The position numbers were made by a program, and so were the translations under genes. DNA of 64,000 nt from Escherichia phage MX01. Within the stretch, counting starts at the first letter, position 1, and every line of letters starts with the position of its first letter. The DNA lies in sequence record NC_031934.1; one strand, 5' to 3'. The notes under the pieces are model-generated. The model had not been told where the DNA came from. It ran no database searches and was given only the letters and a program-made list of their open reading frames with translations. Positions 45,364 through 56,053 of this stretch are shown here, piece after piece.

Positions 45364-48300
45364 ATGGCCGATATTTTAAAACCTGCCTTCCGTGCTACAT
45401 CCGGACTCGATGCTGCAGGCGAGAAAGTTATCAATGTTGCCAAAGCCGATTACAATGTATTAGACGACGGCGTCAACGTTGAATTCTTTATAGATGAGAA
45501 CACCATCCAGGCGTACGACGAGACGCGTGGATATAAGAAAGGGTTTGCAGTAATCCATGACCAACGTATCTGGGTTGCTCAGCGTGATATCGATGCTCCG
45601 GCAGGAACCTTTACACCAGGTTATTGGACAGCAACTCGTACCGACCCTAAGTGGATTACCGTAGCGTCTCCTACACGCCAACTGGCTTCCGGTGAATATA
45701 TTGCGGTGGATTCCGCTGCTAGCTTTACTACATTTACCCTGCCTCCTAACCCTACAGATGGCGATACCGTTGTAATTAAAGATATTGGTGGACGTGTCGG
45801 TTATAATGAAATCAAGGTCCAATCTAGTTCTGCACCTGGTGCCGGTAACCAGAAAATTGTTCGTTTTGGTAATCAGTTCTCTGAAACCCTGATAACCAAA
45901 CCATTTTCTTATAACATGCTTATCTTTGCTAACCGTCTTTGGCATTTCTGGGAAGCAGGTAACGAAGAACGTGGTATCCGTGTAGAACCTAACACCGCTC
46001 AGTTCCAATCACAAGCCGGTGATAACGTTTTACGTCGTTATACTTCAGGTGCAGTAATTAAATTTACTCTTCCTAAGTATGCAAACCAGGGTGATATGAT
46101 TAAAACCGTTGATATTGATGGTTTAGGAAGTAAGTTCCACTTAATCGTCGAAACATTTGATGCTTCGTCTTCATTAGGTAAGCTTGGTCAGCATAGCATG
46201 GAATTCCGTACCTCCGGTGATGGATTCTTCGTTTATAACTCTAACGAAAAATTATGGTATGTTTGGGACGGCGACCGTCAAACTCGTTTACGCGTAATTC
46301 GTGACGATGTTGAGCTCTTGGCTAATGAAAGTGTCATTGTTTTTGGTCCTAATAATACAACGCCGCAGACGATTAATATCACATTACCTACAGGTGTAGC
46401 CCAGGGTGATGTAGTTAAGATTGCTCTGAACTATCTCCGTAAAGCTCAGACGGTAAATATTAAGGCTGCTGTAGGAGATAAAATTGCTTCATCTGTCCAG
46501 CTGCTTCAATTCCCTAAACGTTCGGAATATCCGCCAGAAACCGAATGGGTATTGAATGATGTACTGACCTTTAATGGTAATATAAGTTATACTCCGGTTA
46601 TTGAACTGAGTTATATCGAAGACACCACTATAGGTGGCAAATATTGGGTTGTTGCTCAGAACGTTCCTACTATAGAACGTGTAGATTCTAAAGATGATTT
46701 AACTCGTGCTCGTTTAGGTGTTATTGCCCTTGCGTCCCAGACTCAAGCAAACGTTGACCACGAAAATAATCCTGAGAAAGAACTTGCAATTACTCCACAG
46801 ACTTTAGCTAATCGTGTAGCGACTGAATCTCGTCGTGGTATTGCTCGTATTGCTACTACTGCTCAGGTGAACCAGGACACAACCTTCGCATTCCAGGACG
46901 ATTTGATTATTTCTCCTAAGAAATTAAACGAACGTACTGCAACCGAAACTCGTCGTGGTGTTGCTGAAATTGCTACGCAAGTTGAAACTAACACGGGTAC
47001 AGATGATACTACAATCATCACTCCTAAGAAGCTACAAGCACGCCAGGGTTCGGAAAGTCTTTCAGGTATTGTAACATATACCTCTACTGTAGGAACCACT
47101 CCTGCGACTGCTAGAGACACTGTAGGTACTAACGTTTATAATAAGAACGTTGGCAATTTGGTTATTTCTCCTAAAGCTCTCGACCAGTATAAAGCTACCC
47201 AAGTTCAACAGGGTACAGTATATCTTTCTAACCAATCTGAAGTTAACGCAGGTCAAACTGCAAGTGGATTTGCCAACAGTGCTGTTTCTCCGGAAACATT
47301 ACATGCTCGTGTGGCTCTTGATACTCGTACAGGGTTAATTGAAATTGCTACGCAAGCAGAGACTGATACTGGAACAGATTATACTCGTGCGGTAACGCCT
47401 AAAACGTTAAATGATAGGAAAGCTACGGAAGGATTGACTGGTATTGCTAGAATTGCAACACAGGTAGAATTTGATGCTGGTACGTTAGATAATGTTATTT
47501 CAACTCCGTTGAAAGTTAAAACACGTTTTAATGATACTGCTAGAACTTCTGTCTCAGCAGCCAGTGGTTTGGTTGAATCAGGAACCTTATGGAACCATTA
47601 TACACTAGATATTAGAGAAGCAAATGAGACACAACGTGGTACTGCTCGCCTGGCGACCCAGACCGAAGTCAACGTTGGTACCGATGATAAAACTATCATC
47701 ACTCCTTTGAAATTGCATTCTAAAAAATCTACTGAAAGTTCTGAAGGTATTATTCGTGTTGCAACGAATACCGAAACAACCGCAGGAACTTCTAAAGTTC
47801 TGGCTGTAAGCCCTTCTGGTTTAAAATATGTAGTACAGACCGAAACCACTTGGGAAGCTACTGCCCTTCGTCGCGGATTTGTTAAACTAACCGAAGGTGC
47901 TTTAACCTATTCAGGAAATAAAGTTACTGGTTCTGGTGTTAAATTTAACTCAGGTACAGGCCTTTACGAGAACGACGATACTGTTCTGAACGCAGCTAAC
48001 TACCCTAAAACAGGTTATGCTGTTTCATCTTACGAGATGAATAAAACTTTACAGAACTTTTTACCTATAAATGCTACGGCAGTGAACTCCGAGAAATTGG
48101 ATGGCCTAGATTCACTTCAGTTCATTCGTAGAGACGTCGACCAAACGGTTAATGGTTCTTTAACGTTGACAAAACAATTGAACCTGGCAGCTCCTCTGGT
48201 GTCTTCTAGTACGGCTAATATTACCGGCAACACTATTTTAGGTTCTCTAGAAGTAACTGGAAATTCTACTTTTAAAAATGATGTATCTGTTAGCTCAGGT

Positions 48301-49413
48301 AAATCTATTAAATTTGTAGGGCCCCAGTCAGGTGCAGGTACTTGGAACTCTCAAGGTGATACTTTAGCTCCGATTTTTGCCGAGATAAATTCGACCCCAG
48401 ATGCCAAGTTCCATCCTATTGTTAAACAACGTTTAGGGCAAGGTACGTTCTCTTTAGGCACTGTAAATGATGGAACTCGTGATTTTAAAATACATTATCT
48501 TCCATCGCCGGGTTCTTTAGAATCTTTCTACTGGACCTTTAATACGACCGGTGACTTTGCTGTTAATAGTGGTTCTATTAGTATTTCCAAGAACGCTAAT
48601 ATCACAGGTACAACTACTTCTAACGGTGTTTCTACAACCACACTAAATGCTTCTGCTCTGTCTTCGTTGCAAAACGTAACTACTTCAGGTACTATCGTTT
48701 CTACCGGACAGGTATCTGCAAATAATGGTTTGGTTGCTCAAAAATACGTTCGTTCTGTTGGTGTTAAACCTACATTAGCATCGCAGGTTCCTACTGCAGA
48801 AACAGTTGGCTTCTGGTCTGTTGATATCAATGATTCGGCCACATTTAACCTGTTCCCAGGTTATTGGACGATGAAAACGAAACGTCAGGTTAATATTGAC
48901 ACGGTCCAAACTAAACCTGCTGGTGTTTCTGATGAGATATGGAATGCTTCTGGTTGGTTAACAGAAACGGGTGCATTTAGTTCTCCGGCTATTCGTTATC
49001 GTAACGAAGACGGTAGTTTTGGTGACGAAGTTCTCGGTACATCAGGTCAGAAATTACGTGGTACTTGGTTTGATTATTCTGTTCGTGATAAGGAAGTTAA
49101 ATATCCTGGTACGTTAACCCAGTTTGGTAATACTCTGGATTCATGTTATCAGGATTGGGTGTGCTATCCTACAGGATTGAATGGTGGTACTATTCGTTAT
49201 ACACGTACCTGGCAGAAAAATAAAAACGCATGGACTACGTTCTCTATGGTCTATACCGCAGATAACCCTCCTTCTGCGGAAGAGGTTGGTGCATTGCCTG
49301 CTGATAACGCTACAATGGGTAACATTACAATCCTTGATTGGTTACGTATTGGTAACGTTCGTATTATTCCTGACCCAGTCACTAAATCCGTTAAGTTTGA
49401 GTGGATTGAATAA
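45364..49413 (+). CDS. 34: Long tail fibre proximal subunit gp34
   Basis: 1349 aa; conserved ends and internal repeat block match T4 gp34 as recalled. Confidence 0.9.
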   Translation: MADILKPAFRATSGLDAAGEKVINVAKADYNVLDDGVNVEFFIDENTIQAYDETRGYKKGFAVIHDQRIWVAQRDIDAPAGTFTPGYWTATRTDPKWITVASPTRQLASGEYIAVDSAASFTTFTLPPNPTDGDTVVIKDIGGRVGYNEIKVQSSSAPGAGNQKIVRFGNQFSETLITKPFSYNMLIFANRLWHFWEAGNEERGIRVEPNTAQFQSQAGDNVLRRYTSGAVIKFTLPKYANQGDMIKTVDIDGLGSKFHLIVETFDASSSLGKLGQHSMEFRTSGDGFFVYNSNEKLWYVWDGDRQTRLRVIRDDVELLANESVIVFGPNNTTPQTINITLPTGVAQGDVVKIALNYLRKAQTVNIKAAVGDKIASSVQLLQFPKRSEYPPETEWVLNDVLTFNGNISYTPVIELSYIEDTTIGGKYWVVAQNVPTIERVDSKDDLTRARLGVIALASQTQANVDHENNPEKELAITPQTLANRVATESRRGIARIATTAQVNQDTTFAFQDDLIISPKKLNERTATETRRGVAEIATQVETNTGTDDTTIITPKKLQARQGSESLSGIVTYTSTVGTTPATARDTVGTNVYNKNVGNLVISPKALDQYKATQVQQGTVYLSNQSEVNAGQTASGFANSAVSPETLHARVALDTRTGLIEIATQAETDTGTDYTRAVTPKTLNDRKATEGLTGIARIATQVEFDAGTLDNVISTPLKVKTRFNDTARTSVSAASGLVESGTLWNHYTLDIREANETQRGTARLATQTEVNVGTDDKTIITPLKLHSKKSTESSEGIIRVATNTETTAGTSKVLAVSPSGLKYVVQTETTWEATALRRGFVKLTEGALTYSGNKVTGSGVKFNSGTGLYENDDTVLNAANYPKTGYAVSSYEMNKTLQNFLPINATAVNSEKLDGLDSLQFIRRDVDQTVNGSLTLTKQLNLAAPLVSSSTANITGNTILGSLEVTGNSTFKNDVSVSSGKSIKFVGPQSGAGTWNSQGDTLAPIFAEINSTPDAKFHPIVKQRLGQGTFSLGTVNDGTRDFKIHYLPSPGSLESFYWTFNTTGDFAVNSGSISISKNANITGTTTSNGVSTTTLNASALSSLQNVTTSGTIVSTGQVSANNGLVAQKYVRSVGVKPTLASQVPTAETVGFWSVDINDSATFNLFPGYWTMKTKRQVNIDTVQTKPAGVSDEIWNASGWLTETGAFSSPAIRYRNEDGSFGDEVLGTSGQKLRGTWFDYSVRDKEVKYPGTLTQFGNTLDSCYQDWVCYPTGLNGGTIRYTRTWQKNKNAWTTFSMVYTADNPPSAEEVGALPADNATMGNITILDWLRIGNVRIIPDPVTKSVKFEWIE
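46825..47830 (+). repeat. Internal tandem repeats in gp34 coding sequence (about 35-aa units, six copies)
   Basis: Six copies of motif E(T/S)RRG.A.IAT..E.N.GTD.T..ITPKKL read in the translation. Confidence 0.7.
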
Positions 49414-49421
49414 GAGGTATT

Positions 49422-50543
49422 ATGGAAAGATTTATGGCAGAATTTGGACAAGGATATGTCCAGGTTCCTACATTATCTGAAAACAATGCTGTAAGGTATA
49501 AACTTAGTATAGCGGGTAGTTGTACTAAGTCTACCACAAAAGCATATGTTAAATTTCAAGATGGGGACTTCGGTCCCCAGAATTTTCAAAATGGATTAAA
49601 CCTTATAGAAATCGATGTTAGTGCTGAACCCAAAATAGTGGCTAACAAAACTTATAGTTTTACAAAAGATTTTGATGTTATCTCTGAAGCTTTTATAACG
49701 TATATAAATTCTATACCAGCCAATAGAATAGTTTGTTTAGTATCTTCTGGTAGATTAAATGCTTCACAAAAACTTATCGATTGGTTCCGTGCAGCAGGAA
49801 GTACCGCATTTCCATCTAAATGGCTAATAGACCGCTTCGAGCCGTCTTATTCGGCATTTTATGTTTCAGGAAGGAATACCATAGTAATGGAACATGTGCT
49901 TTATAATGATGGGGTGTTTGTCGAAGATGTTTCTACTCCATTAGAAGTGGTATTTGATGATATCAGCGACGTCGGTGGTACAGGATATCCTGTCAGAATT
50001 GTTGAAGACGAAAGCACTTATCTAAGCAATGATGGAGATGAAATTAAGCGATTTCCTACCGAATCTCCTACCACCCCATTAACAGATTATAATATGAAAC
50101 CAGGTGAATTCTTTTACCTTAAGTTTCAATTAATGTGCGACCAAGCTTTAAAAGATGTCGGGACCTCTCAGATGTCTGTTAGATTTTTTAATGCCTCAGG
50201 TGCTTTAACCGGGACAGTTAATATGGACGTTCCTTCCAACGTTCCTGCTGGTGCATGGATGACATTTGAACGGGTTGTAATGGTTCCTGAAGGTACTACA
50301 GACTTTACCCTTTATGCCAGAAAAACAGCTTCGGCCGGACAAGGTGGAGTTCGAAATGTTATGTTCGGTGAGATATCTGAATCAGAACCTCAGCCAAAAC
50401 CTGCTGAATTTGGTGTTAACGGTATTCGTATGAACTTTGGTACGGAAACTAAAAATATGGGTACTACCATAGCCCAGCTATATGATAAAACAGGCACTAA
50501 ACCTGGTCAGGTTTGGGTCGCTGAATTTAGAGAAAAATATTAA
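49422..50543 (+). CDS. 35: Long tail fibre hinge protein gp35
   Basis: 373 aa, T4 gp35 size and position. Confidence 0.85.
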   Translation: MERFMAEFGQGYVQVPTLSENNAVRYKLSIAGSCTKSTTKAYVKFQDGDFGPQNFQNGLNLIEIDVSAEPKIVANKTYSFTKDFDVISEAFITYINSIPANRIVCLVSSGRLNASQKLIDWFRAAGSTAFPSKWLIDRFEPSYSAFYVSGRNTIVMEHVLYNDGVFVEDVSTPLEVVFDDISDVGGTGYPVRIVEDESTYLSNDGDEIKRFPTESPTTPLTDYNMKPGEFFYLKFQLMCDQALKDVGTSQMSVRFFNASGALTGTVNMDVPSNVPAGAWMTFERVVMVPEGTTDFTLYARKTASAGQGGVRNVMFGEISESEPQPKPAEFGVNGIRMNFGTETKNMGTTIAQLYDKTGTKPGQVWVAEFREKY

Positions 50544-50617: not shown

Positions 50618-51265
50618 ATGGCAGATTTAAAATTAGGTTCTACAGCAGGAGGTTCGGTATTATGGCACCAAGGTAATTTTCCCTTAACGCCTGTATCAAA
50701 TGACCTTCTTTACAAAACATATAAAGTTTACACCGAATATAATAAACCACAAGCCACTGATAACGATTTTGTTTCAAAAGCAAATGGTGGTAATTATAAG
50801 AATAACGTGTATTTTGAAAAAGGGCTGACCTTTAATGATACTAATGGATACGGTATTAAATTAGGAGCAAGAACTGGCGGAGCACCGTTCACGGCTTCTT
50901 TCCGTATTAAAGGCGCTTTTGGATATGAAACGGAAGACGGTACTCCGTTCATGATATTCAACCCAAGTACAGTAGTAGGTGCTAAACGCCTTACAGTAAT
51001 GGGTGATTCATTATTCCGTCAAGTTTATGACGAATCAGGTCGTGTATTCAGCCCAGGCAACACCCCTACTAAAGCTCAAGTAGGATTATCGTTAGTAGAT
51101 AACGCAAAACAGGTCCAAATAAATAATACTAACATGCAAACAATGACCGGGGTACTTGCTGCTCCTAACTTTATTTCGCTGAATCCGGCCTCTGACGCAG
51201 GACACGTTCCTCGTTTTGACCAGATTGTTATTAAAGATTCTATTCAAGATTTTGGTTATTATTAA
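50618..51265 (+). CDS. 36: Long tail fibre hinge connector gp36
   Basis: 215 aa, T4 gp36 size and position. Confidence 0.85.
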   Translation: MADLKLGSTAGGSVLWHQGNFPLTPVSNDLLYKTYKVYTEYNKPQATDNDFVSKANGGNYKNNVYFEKGLTFNDTNGYGIKLGARTGGAPFTASFRIKGAFGYETEDGTPFMIFNPSTVVGAKRLTVMGDSLFRQVYDESGRVFSPGNTPTKAQVGLSLVDNAKQVQINNTNMQTMTGVLAAPNFISLNPASDAGHVPRFDQIVIKDSIQDFGYY

Positions 51266-51273
51266 GAGGCATT

Positions 51274-54200
51274 ATGGCTACTTTAAAGCAAATCCAATTT
51301 AAAAGAAGTAAAGTGGCCGGTGTACGTCCAACACCGGCCCAGTTGGCTGAAGGCGAACTGGCTATTAACTTAAAGGACCGTTTACTTTTTACTAAAGACG
51401 ATACTGGAGCGATTATCGACCTTGGCTTTGCTAAAGGTGGTAATATCGATGGTAACGTTATCCATAAAGGAAATTACACCCAAACCGGTAATTATACTAT
51501 AGCCGGAGCCATTTCACAAACGTCCGGACATTTTACTACTACTGGTAATATAACAGCAACCGGTGATATTACTGCAAAAGCCCGTTTAATGACAGATAAC
51601 GGTGAAGTTCTTGTACGAGGTACAGGAACTACTCATGTTCGATTCCAGGATTTGGCTGATGCTCGCGAAAGAGGTATAATTTATTCTCAAAACCGTGCTG
51701 GGGATACCAAGCAAATCTTGAACGTTCGTGTCCAGGATTATACTAATTCGACATCTAATATTTTTGCATTCAACGGCGACGGTTTATTTTATGCTCCGTC
51801 TATTTCTGGTGGAACATCAATAAAATCTCCAGTAATTTATACTAATACCGTTAATACTGATAGTAAGAAGATTGGTGATTACGATATATCTTCATTAGCA
51901 AATAACACTCCATTTGCAGAAGGCGAAACGGCTATTAACCACCTCCGTGTTATGCGAAATGCTGTAGGAGCAGGTATTTTCCACGAAGTTAATGTTAATG
52001 ACGGAATAACCTGGTATTCCGGAGATGGCTTAGACACTTATCTTTGGTCGTTTACCTGGTCCGGTGGATTGAAAGCAGGTCATTCTATTTCTGTAGGTCT
52101 TCCAGGTGGTTCTAAAGGATATTCTGAATTAGGAACTGCATCAATTGCTCTTGGCGATAATGACACCGGGTTAAAATGGCATCAGGATGGATATTATTTC
52201 AGCGTTAATAACGGCACGAGAACTTTCCTGTACAGCCCCGCAGAAACCACCAGTCTTAGAAAAATGGTTATGGGTTATTCTGTAAACGGTACCGATTTAA
52301 CCACTCCTCCGGTGGAAAACTATGCATTAGCCACTGTTGTTACTTACCATGATAATAACGCGGTAGGTGACGGCCAAACTCTTTTAGGTTATTATCAAGG
52401 TGGTAATTATCACCACTATTTCCGTGGTAAAGGTACTACAAACGTTAACACTGCTGGCGGTTTGTTAGTTACTCCTGGTAATATTGATGTTGTTGGTGGT
52501 TCGGTTAATATTGATGGCCGTAACAACGCTTCGACTCTTTTGTTCAGAGGAAATACAACAGGAAGTAGTTCAGTTGATAATATGACTATCAGCGTTTGGG
52601 GTGACACTTTTAATACGGTAGGTGGTTCTCGTAAAAACGTAATGGAAACATCTGATGCTACCGGCTGGATGCATTATATTCAACGAACTACAGCAGGTAA
52701 AGTCGAATCCTATTTAAATGGTTCCATGAATGTAATTGAAGGATTGACTGTAGTAAAAAATGCTACATTTGACGGTACAATCAGCGCAGCCGGTGGAATC
52801 GCGACAAATGCTGTAAATGGTCTTCGTATTTGGAACGACGACTACGGTGCTATTTTCCGCCGTTCTGAAAATGGCCTTCATATTATTCCTACCGAGTTTG
52901 GACAAGGTAAAACCGGAAATATCGGACCACTTCGCCCATTTAGTATAGCTTTAGATACAGGTAAGGTTAATATTCCTGATTTACAGTCAAGATACAATAC
53001 GATCACTGCGAACGGCTATATTAAATTTGTTGGCCATGGTGCAGGCGCTGGTGGTTATGACATTCAATATGCTCAAGCGGCTCCTATTTTCCAGGAAATT
53101 GATGATGACGCAGTAAGTAAATATTATCCTATTGTTAAACAGAAGTTTTTAAACAGTAAAGCTGTTTGGTCTTTAGGTACTGAAATAGAATCTGGTACAT
53201 TCGTTATTCATCATCTGAAAGAAGATGGTTCACAAGGCCATACGTCTCGTTTTAATCAAGACGGTACTGTTAACTTCCCGGATAATGTTCTGGTCGACGG
53301 TGATATTAACATGAAAGGCGTGATGACTTTTGATGCCGGACGTTTAGGATCACGAGATTATTTTAAATTTAACCATTGGGGTGATAGTAATAATGCTCGT
53401 GATAACATCATCCAGTTAGAAGATAGTCAAGGCGCCCATTTTTCCACTGAACGTACTTTAGCGACAGGTGCAATTAAAACTCGTTTCTTTGGCGAAACAT
53501 TCACTGATGGTACATTATACCTAAATCAGATGAATAATAGCTCTGAAGGATTCTCTATTAATAATTGGGGAAATTCAGAAGTTGGTCGCGCGGCAGTGAT
53601 GGAAGTCAGTGATTCCAAAGGTTATCACTTCTATACGGAACGCAGGACAGATAACAGTTTGGCGTTTGATGTTGCTGGCAATTTTACTACGCATGGACCT
53701 AGCGGAATAACCATCAAAAACTCAACTGGCGCTCGCCACATCTGGTTTAAAGATGATAGCGATGCAGAAAAGGCTGTTATCTGGGCTACAGATGAGGGTA
53801 TTTTACATATTCGCAATAATCATGGGGGTTCATTTAGTCATCACTTCCAGGGCGCAATGATTAAAGTGGGAGAGCGTGTTCCTTATGCCGGAGATCAAGG
53901 GCTTATTCGCGGTGAAGTTTCTGGTGGTGCATGGGTAGACTGGCGAGAGCGCCCGGCTGGTATTCTCTTAGATTGTCAGGATTCACAAAACCAAGCATAT
54001 TCAATTTGGAAAGCAGTTCATTGGGGTTCTGATTATCTTGCGACAATGGGTGTTCATGCTGGCGGTGGTAACGCTACCGTAATGATGCATATGAACAAAG
54101 GCGGCTGGTATTCATGGGCTGCAAATGGTGATTTCACATCTAGTGCTTCTGTATATTGTAACGACGTTTATATTCGTTCTGACCGTCGTCTGAAAATTAA

Positions 54201-54531
54201 CGTTGAAGACTACGAAGAAAATGCGGTAGATAAGGTAAATAAACTAAAAGTTAAAACCTACGATAAAGTTAAGTCTCTTTCTGACCGAGAAGTCATCGCA
54301 CATGATATTGGTATTATCGCGCAGGATTTACAAGAAATTTTACCGGAAGCTGTTAGCACTTCTAATGTCGGATCTCTTGATAACCCAGAAGAAATTTTAA
54401 CAATTTCTAACTCTGCTGTGAACGCGCTTTTAATTAAGGCCATTCAGGAAATGAGTGAAGAAATTAAAGAATTGAAAACGCCTCTCTTTACTAAAATTGC
54501 TCGCAAAATTGGTAAATACTTTAAATTCTAA
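51274..54531 (+). CDS. 37: Long tail fibre distal subunit gp37 with C-terminal intramolecular-chaperone-like domain
   Basis: 1085 aa; N-terminus MATLKQIQFKRSK...GELAINLKDR matches T4 gp37; C-terminal about 115 aa carries an SDRRLK motif. Confidence 0.85.
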   Translation: MATLKQIQFKRSKVAGVRPTPAQLAEGELAINLKDRLLFTKDDTGAIIDLGFAKGGNIDGNVIHKGNYTQTGNYTIAGAISQTSGHFTTTGNITATGDITAKARLMTDNGEVLVRGTGTTHVRFQDLADARERGIIYSQNRAGDTKQILNVRVQDYTNSTSNIFAFNGDGLFYAPSISGGTSIKSPVIYTNTVNTDSKKIGDYDISSLANNTPFAEGETAINHLRVMRNAVGAGIFHEVNVNDGITWYSGDGLDTYLWSFTWSGGLKAGHSISVGLPGGSKGYSELGTASIALGDNDTGLKWHQDGYYFSVNNGTRTFLYSPAETTSLRKMVMGYSVNGTDLTTPPVENYALATVVTYHDNNAVGDGQTLLGYYQGGNYHHYFRGKGTTNVNTAGGLLVTPGNIDVVGGSVNIDGRNNASTLLFRGNTTGSSSVDNMTISVWGDTFNTVGGSRKNVMETSDATGWMHYIQRTTAGKVESYLNGSMNVIEGLTVVKNATFDGTISAAGGIATNAVNGLRIWNDDYGAIFRRSENGLHIIPTEFGQGKTGNIGPLRPFSIALDTGKVNIPDLQSRYNTITANGYIKFVGHGAGAGGYDIQYAQAAPIFQEIDDDAVSKYYPIVKQKFLNSKAVWSLGTEIESGTFVIHHLKEDGSQGHTSRFNQDGTVNFPDNVLVDGDINMKGVMTFDAGRLGSRDYFKFNHWGDSNNARDNIIQLEDSQGAHFSTERTLATGAIKTRFFGETFTDGTLYLNQMNNSSEGFSINNWGNSEVGRAAVMEVSDSKGYHFYTERRTDNSLAFDVAGNFTTHGPSGITIKNSTGARHIWFKDDSDAEKAVIWATDEGILHIRNNHGGSFSHHFQGAMIKVGERVPYAGDQGLIRGEVSGGAWVDWRERPAGILLDCQDSQNQAYSIWKAVHWGSDYLATMGVHAGGGNATVMMHMNKGGWYSWAANGDFTSSASVYCNDVYIRSDRRLKINVEDYEENAVDKVNKLKVKTYDKVKSLSDREVIAHDIGIIAQDLQEILPEAVSTSNVGSLDNPEEILTISNSAVNALLIKAIQEMSEEIKELKTPLFTKIARKIGKYFKF

Positions 54532-54535
54532 TAAC

Positions 54536-54552
54536 AAGGGGCATTGCCCCTT
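54536..54552 (+). terminator. Hairpin between genes 37 and 38 (possible attenuator)
   Basis: aagggg-cattg-cccctt stem-loop. Confidence 0.4.
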
Positions 54553-54564
54553 TGGAGATAAATT

Positions 54565-55368
54565 ATGGCAGTAGTTGGAGTTCCTGGCTGGATTGGAAGT
54601 TCAGCCGTAAATGAAACGGGTCAGCGCTGGATGAGTCAAGCAGCTGGTCAATTAAGATTGGGTGTTCCTTGCTGGATGAGTCAATTTGCAGGTCGCTCAA
54701 GAGAAATTATTCATACACTTGGAGCAGACCATAACTTCAATGGTCAATGGTTCCGAGACCGCTGCTTTGAAGCAGGCAGTGCACCTATAGTGTTTAATAT
54801 CACAGGTGATTTGGTATCTTACGACCGTAATGTTCCATTGTTCTTTATGAATGCCGACACACCTAATGAATATGTCAATTTGACTATTCATGGAGGCGTG
54901 CATATGTGGGGCCGAGGCGGCCACGGCGGATGGACTCATTCAGGTGGCGACGGTAACGGTCAATGGGGTGGTGATTGTATAGTCAACCATATAGGTAATA
55001 GACTACGTATTTGGAACTATGGGGTTATCTGTGGCGGTGGCGGTGGCGGTGGTGGCATTGCGTATCGTCCTCACTCAGGTGCTAACTGGCAAGATATCGG
55101 TGGTGGTGGTGGACGTCCATTTGGTCCTGGTGGCGGTGGTGGATACTCCGGTGGTGGTGCTTCTTATGAAAGCCCTGGCGGTGGATACGATTATGGTAAC
55201 GCCCACTCGGGTCGGGGTGGTGATGCTGGCGGTGCAGGCGCAAACGCATGGCATGATGGGGGTAAGGTTCTTAAAGTTGGGGCCGGTGGCGGTTCTGGAG
55301 CTGCTGTTGCCGTTTCTGCTCCTGCATGGGGAGCGACAGGTACGATTTACGGCCCTTGGCTTAGTTAA
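54565..55368 (+). CDS. 38: T2-type receptor-recognising adhesin gp38 (glycine-rich)
   Basis: 267 aa; conserved N-terminal region then poly-glycine islands (GGGGGGGG, GGGGG) separating variable segments. Confidence 0.8.
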
Positions 55369-55373
55369 GAATT

Positions 55374-55381
55374 TATAAATA
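55374..55381 (+). promoter_or_regulatory. Late promoter TATAAATA for holin gene t
   Basis: Exact TATAAATA 19 nt upstream of the t ATG. Confidence 0.55.
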
Positions 55382-55399
55382 TCTTTAAAGGAGAAAAGT

Positions 55400-56053
55400 A
55401 TGGAACCAAAAGTAGGAATATCATTATCAGACCTACTTTTTGGACTTCTTGATAGAATTTTTAAAGATACTTCTTCCGGGAAAGTAGTTTTTTCCCGGGT
55501 CCTAGTCGTAATATTATTGTTCTTTATGGCATTGGTTTGGTATAAAGGCGAGTATATTCTAAACTTTTATAAAGAGACTACTTATGCCTCTTATACTGAA
55601 ATGATTAGACAGGACCAGGACAATAGATTTAAAATTGCGGCTATCGAGCAGCTCCGAATAGTGCATTCTTCTTCAGGCGCAGACTTCACAGCAATATATT
55701 CTTTTAGACCAACCAACATGAATTATTTTGTGGATATGGTGGCTTACGAGGGTAAATTACCGGAAACGGTAGACGCAAAAAACACGGGAGGGTTTCCAAT
55801 TGACAAAACGTCAATAGAATATATGGCGGGAGTTAACGGGAACTATTTTGAATCAAGTACTGAAACTGTATTCCTTCCTACAAAGAAGAAAACCCATTTC
55901 ACTTATATGTTTTCATGCCCGTTTTTTAATTTGGATAACGTCTACGCCGGCTCGATATCGTTGTACTGGTATGATATCAAACCGGATTTAGGATTTCCTA
56001 GACTTTCGTCTATGTGTGGACAAGCCGGAAGGACATTAGGTCGAACACGTTAG
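55400..56053 (+). CDS. t: Holin T
   Basis: 217 aa; LLFGLLDRIFKD, single N-terminal transmembrane segment, YMFSCPFFNLDNVYAG match T4 T as recalled. Confidence 0.9.
   Translation: MEPKVGISLSDLLFGLLDRIFKDTSSGKVVFSRVLVVILLFFMALVWYKGEYILNFYKETTYASYTEMIRQDQDNRFKIAAIEQLRIVHSSSGADFTAIYSFRPTNMNYFVDMVAYEGKLPETVDAKNTGGFPIDKTSIEYMAGVNGNYFESSTETVFLPTKKKTHFTYMFSCPFFNLDNVYAGSISLYWYDIKPDLGFPRLSSMCGQAGRTLGRTR

Follow-up and report, generated by a model that had tools for sequence, protein, structure and literature searches.

Distal host-range module of Escherichia phage MX01: a gp37 precursor with an S74-type C-terminal chaperone and a T2-type gp38 adhesin in a recombinant tail-fibre locus

The long tail fibre locus of Escherichia phage MX01 (sequence record NC_031934.1) was analysed within a window of 64,000 nucleotides (nt), that is, the whole stretch of DNA under study, whose first letter is position 1. 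The analysis centres on two adjacent genes, gene 37 (g37) and gene 38 (g38), which occupy positions 51274 to 55368 and are separated by 33 nt from the g37 stop to the g38 start. An exact protein look-up identified their products as YP_009324141.1 (gp37, annotated as 'long tail fiber protein distal subunit') and YP_009324142.1 (gp38, annotated as 'tail fiber protein; host specificity') of MX01. Considering sequence matches, structure models and analogy with characterised phages together, the region is assigned with high confidence to the distal host-range module of a T2-type long tail fibre, in which gp37 would end in a self-cleaving chaperone and gp38 would serve as the adhesin. A module of this kind is already known, both proteins being annotated in the public MX01 genome and the arrangement being the ordinary T2-type one (PMC3157838, PMC6851490). 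Within it, the domain identities, the catalytic pair, the predicted folds, the sites of variation and the recombinant origin of the module could be established directly. Gene 37 and its parts are arranged as follows.

51274..54531, + strand: gene 37, long tail fibre distal subunit precursor, 1085 residues, 117.8 kDa (list of open reading frames, ORFs; computed mass)
51274..54177, + strand: predicted mature gp37, residues 1-968, 104.6 kDa, ending ...YCNDVYIR, the proposed gp38 docking face (homology to S16 and fPS cleavage sites; mass)
54178..54528, + strand: intramolecular chaperone (IMC) domain, gp37 residues 969-1085, 117 residues, 13.2 kDa (Pfam, 6F45_A alignment, AlphaFold, Foldseek)
54178..54195, + strand: catalytic motif S969-D-R-R-L-K974, with the predicted nucleophile Ser969 at 54178-54180 and the predicted general base Lys974 at 54193-54195
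54178-54354, + strand: Pfam Peptidase_S74 core, gp37 residues 969-1027 (profile match)
54409-54519, + strand: long C-terminal helix, gp37 residues ~1046-1082, ~37 residues (AlphaFold model)

Both ORFs are as an earlier sequence-only reading of this DNA had described them, with a 267-residue gp38 directly 3' of gp37. That reading had also proposed an S74-type chaperone tail of 'about 115' residues beginning at 54178; the tail comprises 117 residues, and the codon for Ser969 begins at 54178. T4 gp37, which we take to have 1026 residues, would be 59 residues shorter than MX01 gp37, where the same reading had given 'about 60'.

The chaperone assignment is carried by profile, alignment and predicted fold, and the proposed family thereby proved correct. 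The Peptidase_S74 family (PF13884) matches gp37 with 53 bits against a cut-off of 22 (E 4e-14) over profile positions 1-57 of 58, and the domain forms the final 117 of the 1085 residues of this distal subunit; the SDRRLKINVEDYEEN...IAHDIGIIAQDLQEILPEAV string is found in the C-terminal tail. In an alignment of ~120 database homologues of the tail, with identity down to ~31%, every homologue with a residue at the column concerned retains Ser969 (115/115), Asp970 (115/115) and Lys974 (117/117), and the same three positions are likewise invariant in alignment A1, which contains 75 sequences. The catalytic Ser/Lys dyad, for which the sequence-only reading had advised a search, is thus present and without exception among the aligned homologues. 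Additional invariant positions over the 75-120 homologues include L973, G1013, A1016, Q1017, L1023, E1025, A1026 and E1059, and the G-x-x-A-Q...L-P-E-A-V block at 1013-1027 varies only at Pro1024 (118/120) and Val1027 (119/120).

At the structural level, gp37 residues 930-1069 align to the S16 gp37 chain 6F45_A (E 1.8e-10), the match extending from YC.D, past SDRR.K, into the C-terminal helix. In a PDB sequence search, 6F45 supplied the sole solved relative of the tail at E <1e-3, its S16 gp37 construct; weaker matches comprised the tail fibre 8JOV, with an SDERLK motif, and the MyRF domain 7DC3. The AlphaFold model of the gp37 C-terminus, a monomer prediction built on the homologue alignment, has a pLDDT of 82 overall and 88-95 in the core, and consists of an alpha/beta core followed by a long C-terminal helix. 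When this model was searched with Foldseek, the best PDB matches were all intramolecular chaperones, namely MyRF ICA 7DC3 (E 9e-6), endosialidase K1F 3GW6, and 3GUD.

Two further segments of gp37, both well upstream of the chaperone, resemble parts of other fibre proteins. Residues 452-558 (52627-52947) match the C-terminal trimerisation domain of gp34 (Pfam Gp34_trimer, E 5e-6; T4 gp34 4UXE and 5NXH, E ~1e-9), and therefore gp34 and gp37 have a module in common. The LGTASIALGDNDTGLKWHQDG motif at residues 285-313 (52126-52212) matches residues 22-50 of the S16 gp37 construct; the S16 counterpart directly precedes the terminal beta-helix, whereas in MX01 gp37 the segment is located ~650 residues upstream of the tip.

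The cleaved bond is predicted to be Arg968^Ser969 (DVYIR^SDRRLKI), between nt 54177 and 54178. This differs from the sequence-only reading, which had placed the cut at the Ser-Asp bond, because in S16, T5 and K1F the serine leaves with the chaperone. In S16, gp37 is cut at DLNVS^SDRRIKK, N-terminal to the catalytic Ser; the chaperone corresponds to the last 113 residues, and its departure exposes the gp38 docking site (PMC7917993). The fPS phages have the corresponding sequence DVYIR^SDGRLKI (PMC7917993). T5 pb1 and K1F employ a Ser/Lys mechanism in which the catalytic Ser is released with the chaperone, the T5 pb1 pair being Ser1264/Lys1269 (PMC4690869); the spacing of Ser969 and Lys974 (+5, S-x4-K) is the same as in T5 pb1. 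Phage phi29 alone has been modelled otherwise at the cut, on weak density (PMC4690869). Self-cleavage and release have been reported for S16, T2/T6, T5 and K1F (PMC7917993, PMC3157838, PMC4690869), and for T2 and T6 the processing of gp37 followed by gp38 capping is attributed to Drexler 1986, as cited in PMC3157838.

Directly downstream, gp38 is divided into an attachment domain and a receptor-binding region, the latter containing four variable segments.

54565..55368, + strand: gene 38, receptor-recognising adhesin, 267 residues, 27.1 kDa (ORF list, Pfam, PDB, model)
54565..54690, + strand: gp38 N-terminal attachment domain, Pfam Gp38_N, residues 1-42, three short helices (Pfam, model)
54703..55362, + strand: beta-helix and polyglycine II (PGII) sandwich receptor-binding region, Pfam GP38, residues 47-266 (Pfam, PDB, model)
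54931..54966, + strand: variable segment 1, residues 123-134 (entropy peak in a 132-sequence alignment; allele comparison)
55033..55056, + strand: eight-glycine motif, residues 157-164 (sequence; S16 alignment)
55057..55098, + strand: variable segment 2, residues 165-178, which includes the RxHSGA stretch (entropy; allele comparison)
55144..55215, + strand: variable segment 3, residues 194-217, with a conserved GGG at 205-207 inside it (entropy; allele comparison)
55234..55284, + strand: variable segment 4, residues 224-240 (entropy; allele comparison)

Sequence matches and the predicted fold support gp38 as an adhesin of the T2/S16 type, built from a beta-helix and a PGII sandwich, and the T2-type identity proposed from sequence alone was thereby borne out by Pfam, PDB sequence and model. 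With a cut-off of 25 bits for each family (PF21721 and PF05268), Gp38_N scores 72 bits (E 2.9e-20) and GP38 scores 215 bits (E 1.5e-63). PDB sequence matches were obtained to PP01 gp38 9V85 (E 8.5e-60), an entry in which the receptor-binding domain of PP01 gp38 is fused to sfGFP (PMC12892980), and to S16 gp38 6F45_D (E 2e-46). The AlphaFold model (pLDDT 90.5, pTM 0.83) contains helices at residues 10-18, 23-29 and 38-41, followed by beta strands and long non-regular Gly-rich stretches, and Foldseek matched it to 9V85_C (E 5.6e-24, TMt 0.85) and 6F45_D (E 4.4e-23, TMq 0.79, TMt 0.84), with no significant match besides these two.

Features of the attachment domain and of the glycine-rich region agree with the S16 structure, in which three conserved Trp of gp38 plug into gp37 and the PGII sandwich is accompanied by variable loops (PMC6851490). 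W9, W22 and W37 of MX01 gp38 align with the three Trp of S16 gp38; W9 and W22 are conserved in at least 90% of a 71-sequence alignment, and W37 falls outside that list. Glycine accounts for 36.8% (56/152) of residues 116-267 compared with 11.3% of residues 1-115, and gp38 contains 14 runs of at least two Gly. The run of eight Gly noted in the sequence-only reading is indeed present and is encoded by codons 157-164, although it had been placed at 55031-55054, which is 2 nt off and out of frame relative to its actual position, 55033-55056. According to the alignment and PMC6851490, it is the equivalent of S16 PGII helix 3 (151-GGGGGGGG-158).

The proposal that gp38 varies between its glycine islands was likewise upheld. 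In the alignment of 132 homologues, the glycine motifs (116-122, 157-164, 179-183, 205-207 and 241-245) show almost no column entropy, and the peaks lie between them, at 123-134, 165-178, 194-217 and 224-240. This alternation of conserved glycine motifs and variable segments matches the pattern that Trojet et al. and subsequent studies reported.

Several other ORFs of 55-119 residues overlap g38 in other frames or antisense between 54697 and 55378 (55019-55378 on the + strand; 55075-55254 and 54697-54939 on the - strand). They were not retained as genes, being most likely artefacts of the GGN-rich sequence, which has 57% GC compared with 40% for the window.

Comparison of the gp38 variable segments with adhesins of assigned receptor, as the sequence-only reading had suggested, placed MX01 nearest to FL08 and AV119. 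Identity over these segments is 95-98% to the Dhakaviruses QL01, WG01, KIT01 and IME540 and 84-89% to a group of Tequatroviruses, FL08 and AV119 among them (85-86% for those two). Overall, the distribution is bimodal, with at least 80% identity across the FL08/AV119/wV7 group and at most 25% to other groups; T6 (Tsx), M1 and FL18 (OmpA type 2), MN04 and S16-like alleles reach only 11-25%. The adhesins of FL08 and AV119 have been classified as 'type 1' and are OmpA-dependent by experiment, and their R165-A170 stretch (RxHSGA) is reported to contact OmpA loops (PMC12032242). Given this bimodality and the closeness to OmpA-dependent FL08/AV119, OmpA is likely the MX01 receptor, an assignment drawn from sequence comparison that we hold at somewhat better than even confidence.

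For cleavage, docking, stoichiometry and receptor in MX01, the relatives serve as the guide, and the following course of events may be proposed. The 118-kDa gp37 precursor would be synthesised with the Peptidase_S74 chaperone as its final 117 residues, and this chaperone would nucleate trimerisation and folding of the distal beta-helical fibre. After correct folding of the trimer, Ser969, activated by Lys974, would cut the Arg968-Ser969 bond, whereupon the 13-kDa chaperone would depart and bare the ...DVYIR end of mature gp37 (105 kDa). A single copy of gp38 would then dock on the trimeric gp37 end through its three-helix N-terminal domain (W9, W22, W37) and remain in the virion. The C-terminal two thirds of gp38 would form a beta-helix, with a polyglycine-II sandwich made of the conserved glycine motifs projecting the variable loops, and these loops would bind an outer-membrane protein, most likely OmpA. 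By analogy with experiments on S16, PP01, the FL-series phages and LHE83, gp38 is expected to be present in the virion and to bind an outer-membrane protein.

Certain points weigh against this interpretation. The AlphaFold models are monomers, whereas the chaperone acts as a trimer; cleavage, gp38 incorporation and receptor in MX01 are all extrapolated from other phages; and the OmpA assignment is based on ~85% loop identity. An S74-like tail that stays uncleaved in the mature fibre, as an inactive relic or a structural cap, would accommodate the fact that cleavage of MX01 gp37 is itself deduced from relatives, as well as the ambiguity of the phi29 appendage as to the exact cut position (PMC4690869). 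However, gp37 keeps all family-invariant residues, including the Ser/Lys pair; its DVYIR^SD flank is the motif found in the fPS phages, and in alignment it coincides with the S16 site at which cleavage has been shown by experiment; and an uncleaved chaperone would mask the gp38 docking face known from S16 (PMC7917993). A retained tail is accordingly judged very unlikely. Still less credible, and close to negligible, is the idea that gp38 is a T4-type assembly chaperone outside the virion and that the gp37 C-terminus is itself the receptor-binding tip. Several database records do label gp38 homologues 'distal long tail fiber assembly catalyst', but that name is carried over from T4, whose gp38 is very different in sequence and has an assembly role only (PMC6851490). 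MX01 gp38, on the other hand, shows both sequence and predicted-fold matches to adhesins, namely the families PF05268 and PF21721 and the solved S16/PP01 proteins, and the PDB search with gp37 returned only S16 gp37 and T4 gp34 entries, with no T4 gp37 tip.

The architecture may also be right and the receptor be other than OmpA (Tsx, OmpC, OmpF, FadL or OmpW), or a second receptor may be used in addition; this we regard as a serious prospect, at somewhat below an even chance. MX01 differs from FL08/AV119 at ~15% of loop positions (among them P169/V, E201-S202/V-A, D209/Q, R217/Q, A224/N, A226/Q, H230/S) and in the last 25 residues of gp38. The RxHSGA stretch itself reads YRPHSGA in MX01 and YRVHSGA in FL08/AV119, with P169 in place of V166 at or near a reported contact residue, and one variable-loop substitution is able to switch receptor, as illustrated by Q206L in RB51/RB68, which changes OmpF to OmpW (bioRxiv 10.64898/2026.04.02.716166). 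In the literature searched, work on MX01, WG01 and QL01 dealt with host-range swaps and gave no receptor assignment, and no receptor has been published there for QL01, WG01 or KIT01, which carry the same allele (98% over gp38 residues 116-267). OmpA itself is favoured over such receptors by the bimodal loop identity and by the observation, in two independent studies, that similar gp38 C-terminal sequences recognise the same receptor. The Dhakavirus LHE83, in which anti-gp38 serum blocks adsorption, uses OmpA and yet adsorbed at 50% on an ompA deletion strain, a result that would suit a second receptor. As evidence on the MX01 receptor, LHE83 was set aside: a megablast with the 3' half of g38 matched 18 phage records, none of them LHE83, which therefore carries another allele and is uninformative on this question.

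The tail-fibre locus of MX01 (50618-56053) is a recombinant, with junctions near 51900-52950 and at 54757-54818. The latter can be described as follows.

54757..54818, + strand: recombination junction within g38, codons 65-85 (informative sites, sliding identity, segment identities)

Relative to QL01, nucleotide identity is 92-100% across g36 and over the initial ~250 nt of g37, patchy (67-95%) from 51380 to ~51900, and 25-50% from the distal half of g37 through the chaperone into the 5' end of g38, before returning to 91-100% from ~54780 to the end of t. The stretch that diverges from QL01 is mostly 88-100% identical to Tequatrovirus FL33, apart from a few windows at 78-87%, and between ~51900 and 52950 affinities alternate, with IME540 and P479 among them. 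Sites informative between FL33 and QL01 show a clean switch from FL33-like to QL01-like between 54757 and 54818, and the corresponding codons 65-85 are the most conserved segment of gp38. The same division is seen at the protein level: identity of MX01 to FL33 is 97% in the chaperone, 100% in gp38 residues 1-64 and 56% from residue 85 to the end, compared with 30%, 61% and 98% to QL01, whose chaperone is its own 111-residue domain with the motif SDIRVK. Distal g37, the chaperone and gp38 1-64 thus constitute the Tequatrovirus FL33-like part, and gp38 85-267 the Dhakavirus QL01-like part.

The segment identities to FL33 and QL01 imply that the gp38 attachment domain travels with the gp37 tip and the chaperone, and separately from the receptor-binding body. 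The locus is probably a two-piece natural chimera, in which a single docking-compatible cassette of FL33/T6-like type, comprising the gp37 tip with its chaperone and no more than the first ~64 gp38 residues, was exchanged, the gp38 body from ~85 stayed QL01-type, and the crossover fell not in a glycine motif but where gp38 is most conserved. Co-travel is in line with the reported incompatibility between T2 gp37 and the N-terminus of PP01 gp38 (PMC12892980) and with recombination within conserved adhesin sequences (PMC3157838); the event in MX01 is of a known kind. If this view of the chimera holds, ~64 N-terminal residues of gp38 suffice to match the gp37 tip, fewer than the 113 residues swapped experimentally between T2 and PP01 (PMC12892980), and the chaperone allele and the attachment-domain allele are co-inherited.

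Among characterised systems, Salmonella phage S16 (PDB 6F45; Dunne et al. 2018, as relayed in PMC6851490 and PMC7917993) shares with MX01 a self-cleaving gp37 chaperone of ~113-117 residues with YC.D...^SDRR.K, a gp38 with a three-Trp attachment domain, beta-helix, PGII sandwich and eight-Gly helix 3, and the gene order 37 then 38. The two gp38 proteins are 42% identical over the structural alignment, but the S16-like allele reaches 22% over the variable segments and its loops are unrelated; the strand before the cleavage site is DLNVS in S16 and DVYIR in MX01, and the S16 receptor is Salmonella OmpC. PP01 gp38 (9V85; PMC12892980) is the closest solved structure by sequence and predicted fold and has the same beta-helix and PGII sandwich, whereas its loops are different and PP01 binds OmpC of E. 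coli O157.

FL33 has the same DVYIR^SDRRLK site in addition to the near-identical chaperone and the identical gp38 1-64, and T6 resembles MX01 at 88% identity over gp38 residues 1-115. Both differ from MX01 in the receptor-binding allele, FL33 by the divergence after residue 85 and T6 by an identity of 16% over the variable segments; FL33 needs OmpF/TolC, and T6-type adhesins use Tsx. The T2/T6-type coliphage gp37/gp38 pair itself goes back to Drexler 1986 and Riede 1987, as cited in PMC3157838. FL08/AV119 gp38 is 80% identical to MX01 over residues 116-267, with the RxHSGA stretch and the GGDAGG motif in common, but carries another allele of the attachment domain (70-76% over residues 1-115) and belongs to Tequatrovirus rather than Dhakavirus. 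K1F endosialidase (3GW6), 3GUD, T5 pb1 and MyRF ICA (7DC3) share with the MX01 IMC the Pfam family, Ser-x4-Lys, an alpha/beta core with a long helix, and location at the very C-terminal end of a trimeric fibre; their identity is 8-23% in Foldseek alignments and the preceding fibre domains are unrelated. Compared with these systems, in MX01 alone would release of the chaperone also uncover a docking site for a separate adhesin. Finally, T4 gp38 and the T4 gp37 tip have the same genome position and gene numbers as in MX01, but T4 gp38 is absent from the virion and T4 gp37 bears the receptor-binding tip (PMC6851490).

The value of this locus as a discovery is small, since the arrangement has been described for T2 since the 1980s, solved for S16 and PP01, and captured in Pfam. 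For annotation and engineering, the analysis provides a likely mature end of gp37 (Arg968) and a probable receptor, OmpA, and it locates the loops for host-range redesign. It also offers a natural example of a gp37-tip/gp38-attachment cassette swapped without touching the receptor-binding domain.

The genes surrounding the module follow the order of the canonical T-even long tail fibre operon, with the holin gene t next on the 3' side.

45364-49413: gp34 (ORF list)
49422-50543: gp35 (ORF list)
50618-51265: gp36 (ORF list)
55400-56053: holin t (Pfam Phage_holin_T)

The genome backbone is Dhakavirus-like, with 15 kb at 92-96% nucleotide identity to vB_EcoM_FB, AnYang and JS10. The window, over positions 1-64000, contains no tRNA genes and no Rfam family at the gathering threshold. 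Between g37 and g38, one small element was recorded.

54536..54552, + strand: 7-bp GC-rich hairpin, AAGGGGC-ATT-GCCCCTT, between the g37 stop and the g38 Shine-Dalgarno GGAG (54554-54557)

Its centroid fold has -11 kcal/mol, and the surrounding 66-nt stretch has a z-score of only -0.64. An intrinsic terminator between the two genes was considered and rejected: none was called by the scan, the hairpin is without a U-tract, and the 66 nt fold no better than shuffles. A role in mRNA stability or translational coupling is possible. Further upstream, residues 57-130 of gp35 (49422-50543) match the Pfam family ILEI (interleukin-like EMT inducer) marginally, scoring 28.5 bits where the cut-off is 27 (E 2e-6).

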